Source of the DNA: Candidatus Poribacteria bacterium
Lineage (GTDB): Bacteria > Poribacteria > WGA-4E > PCPOR2b
Reading direction: 5' to 3'
Assembly: GCA_965218095.1 (NCBI GenBank)
Contig: OZ244587.1
Coordinates: 2,080,001 to 2,144,000 of the forward strand
Length of the DNA stretch: 64,000 nucleotides
Below are positions 3,258 through 23,769 of this stretch, piece after piece (the stretch's first letter is position 1; the number at the start of each line of letters is the position of its first letter). The notes beneath the pieces were generated by a model. It saw only the letters and a program-made list of their open reading frames with translations. It ran no database searches and was not told where the DNA came from. A program made the translations under genes and the position numbers.

Positions 3258-4283
3258 ATGACCGTTCCTGTTTCAGTTCTAGCGATTGCAGTTGTTGCTG
3301 GTATTTTGTTGTTGTCCTGGCTTGTTCCACTAAGACTCTGGATTGCTGCCCGCGCATCAAACGTGAAGGTCCGAATCTTCCAAGATCTCGTTGCCATGCG
3401 CTTACGTCGTGTGCCTCCGAAGGCAATCGTGGAACCGCAGATTGAAGCGACAAAAGCTGGACTTAATCTCAGACTTGACAACCTCGAAGCGCACTATCTC
3501 GCCGGGGGCAGCGTGGGAAACGTTGTCTCTGCACTCATCGTTGCGGATAAAGCAAGGATCCAGCTGGACTTCACGCAAGCCGCAGCCATAGATCTCGCCG
3601 GGAGAGATGTGTTAGAAGCCGTGCGGATGAGCGTCAATCCAAAGATTATTGATGTCCCACCCAAGGGTGAAAACAGCCCCGGCATTACTGCGGTCGCCCG
3701 TGACGGCATCCAACTGATTGCGCGCGCTCGGGTTACTGTGAGAGCCAATATTAATCGGCTTGTCGGTGGTGCAGGAGAAGCAACAATCATCGCCAGAGTG
3801 GGAGAGGGTATTATCACGACGATTGGTTCTGCCGTAAGCCATAAAGCGGTCCTGGAAAATCCAGCGCAGATCTCGAAGGTTGTCCTTGAAAAGGGCCTGG
3901 CAGCCGGTACAGCTTTTGAGATCCTGTCCATTGATATTGCAGATATCAACATCGGTGCCAATGTCGGCGCAAAACTGCAAACGGATCAAGCGGAAGCCGA
4001 GTTGAAAATTGCTCGCGCCAAAGCGGAAGAAAGACGGGCGCTGGCGCAAGCGCAAGAAGAGGAAAACAAAGCCTTCGTCGAGGAAATGACTGTCACTCTC
4101 GTTGAAGCAGAAGCGGAAGTGCCTCGCGCCATTGCAGATTCTTTCTCGTCAGGCAGCATGAGTGTTATGGATTACTACAATCTGCGCAACGTCATCGCGG
4201 ACACGGAGATGCGTCAATCGATCGCAACGACTAACGGTGACAGAGACACGACCCGTTCATCTCATGCGTTGGGACTTTCGTAA
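3258..4283 (+). CDS. floA: Flotillin-like protein FloA, paralogue 2
   Basis: Same motifs plus C-terminal [17 protein letters not shown]; RBS AAGGAGG. Confidence 0.9.
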
Positions 4284-4639
4284 GAAATTTGGGCTCAGGT
4301 TATTAGGCATTAGGCTATTAACTAATGGTGCTAGTTTGAAACCAAAGATCCAGTCATAGCAACGATCGATTCTTTGCGAGGTCAAATATGTAAGCTCTAC
4401 ACCTCTTGTGGGGACTACATCCTCACCAAACTACAGATGGTATTATTGTGATGGAGAATTTCCGCTTCTTCCTTTTTTCGGAAATTCCGCTAAACCTCAC
4501 CTGATCTGACTTTGAGGCCTTATGGCGTCTTATCGCAGCTTCGCTCCCGTTACCCCTACAATCGGCGATCAGAATTATTTCGTGGAAAGGTATAGAAGAA
4601 AAACCCAGCAATTTCTTGTTCCGCAACCGGCAGATAATC

Positions 4640-5132
4640 ATGAATGAAAAAGAGAGTACAACCCACAACCTGCTTGGCTTACATGCACGCTTCGCCCAAA
4701 TGCTCTCCGAAGCTGCGAATCAATTCTCTTCCAACATCTACATCCAAGAAGGGCAGATGAAAGTAAGCGCAAAAAATGTTATGGGAATCATGATCTCATC
4801 TTTCGCATCATCCGGATCAAATTTTCTTAATTTCGGAGGACAAACCCGCATGTCGCGCGGATCCGATAATTGACCGTTTCGATTATCAAGACCGGGTTGA
4901 GGCGGCAATGTGTCAATCATCGGAGCGGGATGTTGAGAAGCCTTGCAAAGACTGGATCCAAAAATTAAGAAAACCACTCAAAAATGATGCGAAAGGTAAG
5001 ATGATGTTAGCCGCTAGAAAAGACATCCAACTTACCATTACCGCAGAAGGCCCAGGCGAAGAAGAAGTCATCGGAGTATTGTCGAAATTGGTTGAAAGTG
5101 GCTTCGATGAGGTAATTCACTTTCGTGTTTAA
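4640..5132 (+). pseudogene. HPr-family phosphocarrier gene interrupted by a 206-bp MITE
   Basis: N-half GLHAR...AKNVMGIM (4640-4794), C-half MLAA..TITAEGPGEEE..LVESGFDE (5001-5132); removing 4795-5005 restores a 93-aa ORF. Confidence 0.85.
4795..5000. mobile_element. MITE-like element, 17-bp imperfect TIRs, 5-bp TSD ATGAT
   Basis: CTCATCTTTCGCATCAT (4795-4811) vs ATGATGCGAAAGGTAAG (4984-5000), 15/17 inverted match; internal inverted TTTTCTTAATTT/AAATTAAGAAAA; ATGAT at 4790-4794 and 5001-5005. Confidence 0.85.
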
Positions 5133-21516: not shown

Positions 21517-21537
21517 CGTAAAACGTAAGATGCCACC

Positions 21538-21726
21538 GTTTCAATCTTATAAGGGTTTGGTTCGGCGTTGCAACTTACCCAGGCCGTCAACTGTGATGTG
21601 AATTTTTGTACTGGTTTCAATCTTATAAGGGTTTGGTTCGGCGTTGCAACCCCGGCAGTTCTAATGACCGTGCGAACAAACTTGTTACCGTTTCAATCTT
21701 ATAAGGGTTTGGTTCGGCGTTGCAAC
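21538..21726. CRISPR. Mini CRISPR array: 3 identical 37-bp repeats, 2 spacers of 39 bp
   Basis: Repeat GTTTCAATCTTATAAGGGTTTGGTTCGGCGTTGCAAC at 21538-21574, 21614-21650, 21690-21726; spacers TTACCCAGGCCGTCAACTGTGATGTGAATTTTTGTACTG and CCCGGCAGTTCTAATGACCGTGCGAACAAACTTGTTACC; reverse complement ends ATTGAAAC. Confidence 0.92.
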
Positions 21727-21954
21727 CCCGGCGCCTCTGGGAGCCTTGACGTTGTTGGGGTTTTCAACTCTTTTTCTGTCAGCCCCTCCCCAATCGGGGA
21801 GGAGGACACGGTTTGGGGGGATAAGGTAAGTCGGTGACAACGCCGAAACCCTTATAGGTGTTGCAAAGCCGGGCTTTCCTGTCAGTCTGCGGGGTTTTTA
21901 TTAGCCCTAGGGTTGGCAGGATTAAATCCTTATAAGGTATCCCTTTAAGTGGTA
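21727..21954. promoter_or_regulatory. Leader-like/anti-repeat segment between array and omegaRNA
   Basis: CAACGCCGAAACCCTTATA (21838-21856) complementary to the repeat; CTGTCAG at 21776 and 21879 with inverted TGACA at 21835; CCTTATAAGG palindrome 21928-21937. Confidence 0.55.
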
Positions 21955-22216
21955 GATTCTAATTACACTCACACCTAGAAACAGCCTTAGCCCGTGAGTT
22001 GAAAGGAATCTGGGCTACGTTGGTATGATTAGCATACCCTGGGGTGCTCCACCAGCCCCAGGCACTATGGCGGCTCTTTAAGAAGGACTTGGGGAGGTTC
22101 GGTCAACCGCATTTCGCACTCACTTTGAGTGAAAGTCACACCAACATTGGCGGGGTGGATCATACCTATTACCCCCCTATCTCCCTCCCGCAAGCGGGGA
22201 GGGGGAAGGGAGGTAA
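21955..22216 (+). ncRNA. IscB omegaRNA (HEARO-like) scaffold
   Basis: CAGCCTTAG (21982), TAGCCC/GGGCTA stem, CTACGTT, CCTGGGG/CCCCAGG stem whose loop TCCACC (22048-22053) can pair with GGTGGA (22154-22159), GTTGGT/ACCAAC stem, AACATTGGCG, 3' GC hairpin ending at the iscB RBS; 5' end approximate. Confidence 0.85.
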
Positions 22217-22227
22217 TGGAGGTCAAT

Positions 22228-23769
22228 ATGTTTGTTCATGTTTTATCAAAATCAGGTCAGCCGTTGATGCCCACGCATCCGGCAAACGCACGTAAACTGC
22301 TTAGAGACGAAAAAGCCCAAGTTGCGAAAACTAAAACGGGCGTGTTTACGATTCAACTCAATTATGAATCTCTAACATATACGCAACCGATAACCGTTGG
22401 AATTGACACCGGCTCAAAATCTGTGCCGATCGCCGCAGAGGGCAACGGCAAAATTTACTACGCCAAGGAGAAACTATTACGGACGGATGTTAAGAATCGA
22501 CTTTCCGATCGGCGTCAACAGAGGAGAATCCGAAGACACCGTAAAACCCGGTATCGGAAACCTCGTTTTTTGAACCGCACCAAAACGAAATGCAGCCGTT
22601 GCGGTGTCAATAATGTGCCGTGTTTATGGACTCTCAAAAAGCGCGAAGAGGGGCAGACAAAGAAGTGGGTTAAGGGTCGGAGAAAATCTTTATGCAGACC
22701 TTGTAAAGGGCATAAAGGAGAGCATAAGCAACCGACTGTGTTAGCCCCTTCAATTAAGAACCGTGCGGAGAGTATTCTAAATGATGTAGAGAGACTGCGG
22801 AAAACCCTGCCCATCTCTAAGGTGGTCGTAGAAACGGCGTCATTCGATACTCAGAAGATGGCAGATCCGAAAATTAAAGGCGTCGAATACCAGCAGGGAA
22901 CCCTCGCCGGGTACGAGTTGAAAGAGTATCTGCTGATAGTGAACAAGCATACATGCGCCTATTGTGGTAAAAAGGATGTCCCCCTTGAAAGGGAACATAT
23001 TTTGCCCAAAGCCAAGGGAGGCAGCGATCGCATTGATAACGCGACGGTCGCTTGTGTGTCTTGCAATGCCGAAAAAGGCGCGAGGACATTAGATCAGTGG
23101 GAAGAGTCACTGCCAGAGGCGGACGCTCGTAGGCAGGGGATACAGCGGGTTCGGAAAAATGCGAATGTCAAAAAAGAATTCCAGTATTCGGCATTGACCC
23201 AATCCTATAAGAATTATTTGATGAAGTCATTGCGCGAACAGTTCCCTGTAATTGAGGAGACTTACGGTTACATGACGAAGTTCTACCGGATTCGACGGAA
23301 GCTTGACAAAACCCAGATAAACGATGCTATGGTGATTGCATCAGAAGGGGAGCCGTTCCAACTACCGGATCGATTTCTTATAGAGAAGCAGATCAAGAAA
23401 CGGCATCCATATCATTCTATCTCGGACCGACATGGTTATAAAATCGTCAAGTATAAGCGCGATCCTGAAAAATATGGTTTCCGCCTATGGGATCGAGTGA
23501 GTTTCAATCATAAGGAATTCGGAGAAGTGGTTGCTTATATCTCTGCGCTGAAAGAGGATGGCTATTTTGAAATGCGCGATATTGAAGGAGGGAAAATTAA
23601 GGGAAAGCGTCCGACCTGTTCACATAAAAAGTTAAAATTGATAGAACCCGCGAGAACAAACTACATAAGGGAATGGCGCGTAACGCGGACTTCGACGAGC
23701 TCAGACTTCGTCGATCCATTGTTAGCCGGTCCTGCCGAACAACTTCACCTGTTCTCGCTTATGTCATAG
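22228..23769 (+). CDS. iscB: IscB RNA-guided endonuclease (IS200/IS605 OMEGA; PLMP, RuvC, bridge helix, HNH), 513 aa
   Basis: PLMP motif, RuvC-I GIDTG (D60), RRxRR bridge helix, RuvC-II VVETASFD (E202), HNH CAYC..EREHILP..GGS..N..C..CN..KG (H257), RuvC-III KTQINDA; ATG 22228 after GGAGG. Confidence 0.93.
   Translation: MFVHVLSKSGQPLMPTHPANARKLLRDEKAQVAKTKTGVFTIQLNYESLTYTQPITVGIDTGSKSVPIAAEGNGKIYYAKEKLLRTDVKNRLSDRRQQRRIRRHRKTRYRKPRFLNRTKTKCSRCGVNNVPCLWTLKKREEGQTKKWVKGRRKSLCRPCKGHKGEHKQPTVLAPSIKNRAESILNDVERLRKTLPISKVVVETASFDTQKMADPKIKGVEYQQGTLAGYELKEYLLIVNKHTCAYCGKKDVPLEREHILPKAKGGSDRIDNATVACVSCNAEKGARTLDQWEESLPEADARRQGIQRVRKNANVKKEFQYSALTQSYKNYLMKSLREQFPVIEETYGYMTKFYRIRRKLDKTQINDAMVIASEGEPFQLPDRFLIEKQIKKRHPYHSISDRHGYKIVKYKRDPEKYGFRLWDRVSFNHKEFGEVVAYISALKEDGYFEMRDIEGGKIKGKRPTCSHKKLKLIEPARTNYIREWRVTRTSTSSDFVDPLLAGPAEQLHLFSLMS

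Follow-up and report, generated by a model that had tools for sequence, protein, structure and literature searches.

Does a short CRISPR (clustered, regularly interspaced short palindromic repeat) array that adjoins a gene for the nuclease IscB supply that nuclease with guides, or do the two merely share a site? The question is raised by a locus in a 64,000-nt window of contig OZ244587.1 (assembly GCA_965218095.1), the whole stretch of DNA analysed here. It comes from a sponge symbiont, a Candidatus Poribacteria bacterium whose genome is a single contig of 6.35 Mb. Three repeats with two spacers are followed at this locus by an omegaRNA scaffold and by iscB. The locus is a real, well-formed CRISPR-associated IscB of a published kind, with an unusual spacer against the genome's own insertion sequence (IS). 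We consider it likely that the module uses a guide RNA in two pieces, that the host inserted the spacers in trans and that spacer 1 was taken from the IS. The features that carry the argument are listed below by their positions in the window; the whole module is read on the + strand.

21534..23769, + strand: whole module, a lineage-specific insertion of ~2.2 kb (by flank alignment; edges uncertain by ~4 nt)
21538..21574, + strand: repeat 1, 37 nt, adjoining the left edge of the insertion
21575..21613, + strand: spacer 1, 39 nt, identical to an internal stretch of the genome's IS5-family transposase gene and antisense to the transposase mRNA
21614..21650, + strand: repeat 2, identical 37-nt copy
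21651..21689, + strand: spacer 2, 39 nt, no target found in the sets searched below
21690..21726, + strand: repeat 3, identical 37-nt copy
21834..21868, + strand: anti-repeat (local alignment and duplex energy against shuffles; inverted-repeat pairs also seen there)
21836..22155, + strand: abundant RNA, a candidate tracr-like omegaRNA made up of anti-repeat, small hairpin and HEARO scaffold (metatranscriptome contigs)
21897..22165, + strand: HEARO/omegaRNA scaffold (Rfam RF02033, full model 1-211)
22228..23769, + strand: iscB, 513 amino acids (Pfam; catalytic positions conserved)

The array, the omegaRNA scaffold and IscB

The repeat, GTTTCAATCTTATAAGGGTTTGGTTCGGCGTTGCAAC, occurs in three identical copies that start at 21538, 21614 and 21690 (period 76 nt), and the two 39-nt spacers are unrelated to each other. 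The Rfam HEARO model matched over its full length (75.3 bits, E = 1.2e-14; below the gathering score of 83), and 21897-22165 was its sole match in the genome. The 513-amino-acid open reading frame (ORF) at 22228-23769 matched Pfam RRXRR (1.3e-51) and HNH (5.2e-10), and its matches among solved structures were TbaIscB (E = 6e-49) and OgeuIscB (E = 1e-28). It has the N-terminal PLMP/RRXRR part and the split RuvC domain with an inserted HNH domain that mark IscB, and no recognition (REC) lobe. D60, E202, H257, N280 and D366 were invariant in an alignment of 55 sequences.

The repeat, Rfam and Pfam searches confirmed the anatomy given in an earlier note on this DNA, apart from its gap of ~230 bp after the last repeat; the distance to the start of the Rfam scaffold is 170 nt. 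The note had also placed the module in a housekeeping setting without cas or tnpA genes. The flanking genes are indeed metK, ahcY, a small ORF and pfkB, and the absence of cas and tnpA holds for this neighbourhood. It does not hold for the genome, where Cas1 is found at two loci only (3.42 and 4.78 Mb) and four Y1-transposase (Y1_Tnp) matches all lie far from iscB. Full iscB is single-copy. At up to 3 mismatches, the genome-wide matches to the repeat were the array copies themselves (3/3), so the repeat does not recur beside cas1/cas2, where the note had suggested looking for it.

An anti-repeat at the start of an abundant RNA

The anti-repeat at 21834-21868, which the earlier note had overlooked, pairs with almost the entire repeat, leaving a 4-nt gap (local alignment score 33, maximum 24 in 200 shuffles). 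We observed that contigs from RNA libraries start where the anti-repeat starts and end where the HEARO part ends. Run X10 gave a contig over 21836-22155 at a depth of 60.3 and run X11 one over 21837-22149 at 54.1; contigs over iscB had depths of 2-4. X10 and X11 are metatranscriptome runs of one study, and their contigs show no strand, true ends, level or small RNAs, so we take the evidence for an abundant tracr-like omegaRNA of ~315 nt as a good hint and not as proof. Nil-to-low contig cover of the array was not counted as evidence of absence.

The anti-repeat, together with an abundant RNA that starts at it, suggests a system of CRISPR RNA (crRNA) plus tracr-like omegaRNA, like that of published CRISPR-associated IscB. 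In such a system the scaffold RNA (~21836-22155), with the anti-repeat first and the HEARO-type omegaRNA behind it, would be made in quantity. Transcripts of the mini-array would give spacer-repeat units, the repeat of which would pair with the anti-repeat. This pairing would set the 3' end of the spacer at the flank-guide position of an ordinary omegaRNA, as crRNA together with trans-activating crRNA (tracrRNA) does for Cas9. On this reading, IscB would load the spacer-derived guides for cleavage that depends on a target-adjacent motif (TAM). The geometry that the earlier note had read on the + strand, guide 5' and repeat 3', holds, with array, anti-repeat and scaffold on the same strand. Long-range RNA folds paired the repeat in rival ways, and no structure was selected from them.

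A single insertion between ahcY and the small ORF

In all of the family genomes searched (24/24), metK, ahcY and the small ORF are consecutive, and in 22 of the 24 the retrieved sequence also contains pfkB after them. The gap between ahcY and the small ORF measures 17 to ~460 nt in these genomes and 2315 nt at the iscB locus; the repeat was found in this gap in none of them (0/24). Alignment of the flanks (GATGC-CACC-insert-TAGAGGTATTGC here, GATGC-TAAGGATTGCC in the relative L118) places the left edge of the insertion at most 4 nt from the first base of repeat 1 and the right edge at the iscB stop codon. The empty sites and this alignment indicate that the whole module is a lineage-specific insertion acquired in a single event. 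An IscB element of OMEGA type (obligate mobile element-guided activity) would have inserted once between ahcY and the next gene. The omegaRNA scaffold normally begins at the left edge of such an element, a place occupied here by repeat 1. Because the site is array-free in 24/24 family genomes, we reject the alternative offered in the earlier note, in which IscB inserted beside an orphan array that was already there.

Relatives of the locus

No close IscB orthologue was found in genomes of the family or order (best 41% identity). The nearest proteins are metagenomic: one shows 99% identity, and the other listed hits of comparable length are all at or below 57%. We scanned 91 related loci for exact repeats of at least 20 nt with a period of 50-100. 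Such repeats were seen at 5/91 loci and lay upstream of iscB on the same strand at three of them (L027, L020 and L040). L027 (~50% identity) has at least 11 repeats of 30 nt, and the complement of its repeat lies inside the 5' part of its HEARO match. L020, from a poribacterial metagenome-assembled genome (MAG; 37% identity), has a HEARO match whose 5' end is the last repeat copy, with the complement ~50 nt later; its upstream copies are irregular and truncated, with spacings of 28 to 73 nt. No cas genes stand beside the L027 or L020 loci. At L020 the IscB mini-array (3726-4260) adjoins a separate class-1-type array with a different 37-nt repeat (4397-4646).

Five closer relatives (L026, L030, L031, L017 and L032; 51-64% identity) have a canonical omegaRNA (GTCAAYA...) directly after the upstream DNA and no array. 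The recurrence of array, omegaRNA and iscB among homologues, which the earlier note had proposed to look for, is seen at L027 and L020 and not in these five. The nearest relatives with known context are array-less and flank-guided, and sequence comparison therefore indicates that the flank-guided state is ancestral in the clade and that the CRISPR association is derived at this locus. A quick phylogeny, used only as such, required 4 changes of the array label, at least 3 of them forced by well-supported branches. It did not resolve the present locus and L027, and the two may share a single origin of the association. At L026:2463-2845, a 384-nt gap between omegaRNA and iscB is filled by short tandem repeats (gattgcttcgcaa...gctcgt).

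The repeat resembles those of the host's type I-D systems

The host genome has two CRISPR arrays, each beside a type I-D-like cas operon (Csc1-3, Cas3', Cas6, Cas4-Cas1 and Cas2). Their repeats, A and B, are also 37 nt long and have end motifs like those of the IscB repeat, and the spacers of array B measure 35-43 nt (39 nt in 10 of 61). Ungapped comparison gave the following identities.

IscB repeat and repeat B: 18/37 identities, 0/500 shuffles as good
IscB repeat and reverse complement of repeat B: 19/37 identities, 0/500 shuffles as good
IscB repeat and repeat A: 18/37 identities, 8/500 shuffles as good
IscB repeat and reverse complement of repeat A: 18/37 identities, 2/500 shuffles as good

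The repeat would be the 5'-terminal 37 nt of the element, carrying the length and end motifs of the host's type I-D repeats. From this likeness we infer that the host adaptation module, Cas4-Cas1/Cas2, acted in trans and put both spacers into the repeat-like 5' end.

A class-1 array of type I-D-like descent, lying beside IscB or carried by it, could in principle serve the host's own type I-D effector from the minus strand. The repeat has the fitting length of 37 nt, is like repeats A and B beyond shuffles, and its reverse complement ends ATTGAAAC, as host array B does. However, the Cas6-type stem-loop that precedes this 8-nt handle in repeat B is missing from the IscB repeat, which is confined to the one site, and that site is array-free in all 24 family genomes. 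The anti-repeat and scaffold RNA lie on the + strand, and the host arrays have no self-matching spacers (0/175). An orphan array of this kind is hardly credible.

The earlier note had also inferred that the array was captured and not generated from the omegaRNA. We do not favour this: repeat 1 lies at the edge of the element and the anti-repeat at the 5' end of the scaffold RNA, and at L020 the repeat is itself the HEARO 5' end. At L020, then, an omegaRNA 5' end has been multiplied, an argument against the mere capture of an array from elsewhere. A class-1 source of the repeat sequence is nevertheless possible, given that the repeat resembles the host's type I-D repeats.

Both host CRISPR loci hold further features. 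Between cas4-cas1 and cas2 (4783396-4783722, L152), 4-5 tandem units of ~82 nt each contain GAGATTGAAAC, the end of type I-D repeat B; they sit in the cas operon upstream of the true array B. At the 3.42-Mb locus (L151:14025-14789), a gene for a RAYT-like REP-associated tyrosine transposase (NCBIfam NF047646, E = 4e-19, under the cut-off) lies between cas1 and a 115-repeat array and overlaps the end of cas1.

Spacer 1 is a segment of the genome's own IS5-family element

All 39 nt of spacer 1 are found, unchanged, within an IS5-family insertion sequence of the same genome. Elsewhere in the genome the spacer has 18 perfect sites; 64 are counted when up to 3 mismatches are allowed and 105 when up to 4 are. 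The element is ~805-850 nt long, with DUF4096 and DDE_Tnp_1 ORFs joined at an A-run and inverted ends GGTTCTGTTGACATTT. Counting those of at least 700 nt, it has 124 copies, which make up roughly 1.6% of the genome; among 60 other order genomes only 3 hold it, with 2-6 copies each. One copy (L145:~1120-1966) lies ~1.3-2.2 kb before the start of the window, and inside the window only the 39-nt spacer is present. The protospacer is in the DDE_Tnp_1 ORF, at the region of the first catalytic Asp, with the spacer antisense to the mRNA; its 3' flanks are AATCCC or AAACCG. The match stops sharply at both borders of spacer 1 though the IS is conserved on either side, and spacer 1 is therefore a discrete spacer and not a fragment of an IS insertion. 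These data suggest that it was drawn from the genome's own massively amplified element.

We also weighed whether the spacers could be former flanks of an element that moved repeatedly, each time leaving its old 5' flank and a copy of its end, with one of the sites inside the IS5-family element. OMEGA guides are described as flank-derived by nature, the position of repeat 1 at the element edge puts the current flank in guide position, and L020 offers an example of irregular, truncated copies of an omegaRNA 5' end with spacings of 28 to 73 nt. The array studied here, in contrast, has spacers of exactly 39 nt and a period of exactly 76, and within a conserved element of ~805-850 nt the match breaks off sharply at both spacer borders. 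The element is single-copy and has no TnpA nearby. We regard former flanks as very unlikely and retain host-inserted spacers.

The earlier note had proposed comparing the spacers with viral and plasmid sets; viral_contigs gave no exact match to either spacer and the phages none to spacer 2, and the source found for spacer 1 was the genome's own IS. A phage or plasmid origin of spacer 1 was rejected: the very deep run contigs were the genome's own IS copies, and viral_contigs held no exact match. For spacer 2, the best match in the genome was 14 nt, viral_contigs gave no exact match, and neither the phages nor the 60 other order genomes contained a target. A 13/15 similarity between spacer 2 and iscB (23648-23662) was taken as chance. 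One L020 spacer, searched against its fragmented MAG, matched only itself. At the level of titles and abstracts, we found no report of an IscB array spacer against a resident IS.

Because 18 perfect targets coexist with an apparently intact nuclease, cleavage guided by spacer 1 probably does not occur. Possible reasons are a flank that is no TAM, a low supply of crRNA or an unused array. We saw no escape mutations in the protospacer and no excess variation among the IS copies (minor-allele fraction 0.054, compared to 0.056 for the whole element; rank 318/766 windows).

A probable single-repeat allele and a genome without detectable RNase III

Run X7 yielded a DNA contig of 5971 nt that shows 48 differences across 2164 nt. 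In it, position 21534 is joined to 21687, and exactly two repeat-spacer units are left out. X7 depth in the bin 21612-21692 was fully explained by IS-derived contigs and this contig, which left no cover for spacer 2. In run X4, contigs break at the repeats. X10 RNA carries variants of the X7 type together with the abundant scaffold RNA. These data suggest that a single-repeat, spacer-less allele probably exists in a related strain and is expressed there, with assembler collapse as a possible alternative. This allele may predate the array or may have arisen from it by deletion.

We did not find an RNase III domain in the genome: PF14622 and PF00636 gave no match, and TIGR02191 matched only as a 30-bit piece of its double-strand-binding part. 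PF00636 was found in 0/41 order genomes, and control genomes were positive in 8/14 cases. Type II crRNAs are described as matured by RNase III. Any maturation of the duplex would therefore not follow the Cas9 route.

In a fuller scenario, the locus would show the birth of an array on an OMEGA element whose 5' end mimics a type I-D repeat; host Cas4-Cas1/Cas2 would be loading this end, with the genome's own IS5-family element first. IscB would be aimed at the catalytic core of the transposase, through cleavage or through an antisense crRNA. Maturation would be free of RNase III, and the single-repeat strain would preserve the prior state. We regard this scenario as possible but doubtful.

Does IscB use the array?

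The array could instead be a functionless by-product of ectopic integration by type I-D Cas1-Cas2, with IscB, if active, working on a one-piece RNA and the spacers unused. Several observations count against a working two-piece guide RNA, and a number of them suit this rival. The HEARO part retains a 5' stem of its own (TTTATTAG with CTAGAAA), and with that stem the RNA could be a single piece whose guide is fixed and internal. Another stretch like an anti-repeat, at 21912-21936, is weaker and scores 23, the 95% shuffle level. This stem and this stretch would allow more than one scheme of pairing. By energy alone, the repeat:anti-repeat duplex stands only at the ~1% level of shuffles (-35.1 kcal/mol; 5% point -29.7 and minimum -36.4 among 200 shuffled repeats). 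The RNA evidence is at contig level and both runs are of one study; one of the contigs continues into unlike sequence after 22155, and RNA cover of spacer 2 was nil in X10 and at most ~2 in X11 (bin arithmetic on contigs).

There are no more than two spacers. Use of the spacer 1 guide with a suitable TAM would kill the cell through the 18 perfect self-targets, and variation among the IS copies is not raised at this place. Cas9-style maturation is not available to a genome in which RNase III was not found. On the side of spacer acquisition, repeat copies 2 and 3 are directly followed by the same six bases, CCCGGC, which clean integration would not give. The protospacer-adjacent motif (PAM) of type I-D systems is GTN, which is not matched by ATT or GGA, the bases that adjoin the spacer 1 protospacer. 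Resemblance of the repeat to I-D repeats and a related strain that seems to manage with a single repeat also suit a by-product. Even so, an accidental array leaves unexplained a 35-nt anti-repeat for the whole repeat exactly at the 5' end of an abundant RNA, and a published CRISPR-associated IscB with the same repeat/anti-repeat layout is described as active (PMC12660989). We therefore judge a by-product unlikely and prefer a two-piece guide RNA with spacers inserted in trans.

Comparison with known systems

Altae-Tran et al. reportedly described CRISPR-associated IscB in 2021. According to a review, IscB became associated with CRISPR on separate occasions, in several small branches of the family. 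An array and a non-coding RNA (ncRNA) are described for the K. racemifer IscB-1 region in a commentary (PMC11610941), and DelIscB is described as CRISPR-associated, with a repeat/anti-repeat layout, and active (PMC12660989). The intermediate between IscB and a Cas9-like system proposed in the earlier note stands in so far as the locus is a CRISPR-associated IscB with a derived association; it is not newly seen, since the kind is already published (PMC12660989, PMC11610941, PMC10734277).

As far as these accounts describe them, DelIscB and K. racemifer IscB-1 resemble the present locus in the small size of IscB and in an upstream ncRNA that comprises repeats, spacers and an anti-repeat joined to an omegaRNA scaffold; cas1, cas2 and csn2 are likewise not adjacent. 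The present locus has the IscB protein, a same-strand HEARO scaffold (under the gathering score), an upstream array and an anti-repeat. It differs from DelIscB in size (513 amino acids, compared to 457). By their descriptions, it also differs from the published cases in that its anti-repeat lies 5' of a HEARO part that has its own first stem. It is moreover a single insertion in a complete symbiont genome, with a spacer against a host IS, in a lineage without detectable RNase III.

Canonical IS200/IS605 OMEGA IscB (RF02033; OgeuIscB 7xht/7utn) has the same protein family and the same scaffold RNA, and the nearest relatives with context are of this type. Here, in contrast, TnpA is not nearby (all 4 Y1_Tnp matches are elsewhere), iscB, HEARO and the repeat are each confined to this one locus, a repeat-spacer array stands in guide position and the first domain of the RNA is rebuilt. 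Type II Cas9 resembles the module in its nucleases, RuvC and HNH, and in a spacer-repeat unit that pairs with the 5'-terminal anti-repeat of a scaffold RNA. It differs from the present system, a protein of 513 amino acids without a REC lobe, with a large scaffold RNA, no adjacent cas1/cas2 (Cas1 occurs only within the type I-D-like loci) and no RNase III found.

CRISPR-associated transposons carry self-targeting 'homing' spacers, and Cas1-Cas2 can integrate spacers ectopically ('neo-CRISPR'). Like such cases, the present locus has a mini-array next to the nuclease of a mobile element and a spacer that matches the chromosome, and its array may have arisen at a repeat-like sequence. It differs in that the target is a multicopy IS transposase gene and not an attachment site, transposition machinery is not linked, and integration in trans is a reading of the repeat's likeness to host repeats.

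For the transition from a transposon nuclease to Cas9, nature offers no proxies other than CRISPR-associated IscBs, and it is an open question by what route IscB arrays lacking cas1/cas2 acquire spacers. New here are the self-IS spacer, the likeness of the repeat to host type I-D repeats, the apparent one-/three-repeat polymorphism and the missing RNase III. The value of the locus lies in a defined insertion, for which 24 relatives provide the empty site as a control, and in a single complete genome. It lies also in candidate trans-acting adaptation modules whose repeats match the IscB repeat in length and ends, in an apparent strain polymorphism of one versus three repeats, and in a spacer source known exactly, an IS with 124 copies in this genome. 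Direct tests become possible for acquisition in trans, for tolerance of self-targets through the TAM and for maturation independent of RNase III. If nothing here is functional, the locus remains an ordinary member of a published class.

Other features of the locus

Two hairpins complete the feature list.

21738..21776, + strand: terminator-like hairpin and T-run 3' of the array, overlapping a weak, non-significant repeat-like stretch (21762-21772)
22167..22218, + strand: G+C-rich hairpin over the iscB ribosome-binding site (predicted fold)

We do not claim a fourth, degenerate repeat at 21762-21772, since its score of 16 is below the shuffle median of 18. A simple scan found no sigma-70 promoter on the + strand before the array or the scaffold RNA; TAAGGT at 21822-21827, picked by eye, is only a guess. 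Two G+C-rich hairpins are similar to each other (CCCTCCC...GGGGAGG): one at 21784-21806, between array and anti-repeat, and the predicted fold at 22167-22218, which might gate translation of iscB.

The bases after the ahcY stop codon at 21517-21531 (CGTAAAACGTAA...) are part of a short AAAACGT-type heptamer repeat that recurs at well over a hundred sites in the genome and after ahcY in several relatives. At the other end of the module, the last 29 codons of iscB, which are not conserved, hold stretches complementary to a segment ~90 nt upstream (23648-23670 and 23751-23766; pairs GCGAGAACA/TGTTCTCGC and ACATAAG/CTTATGT). These stretches may be a remnant of the right end of the element.

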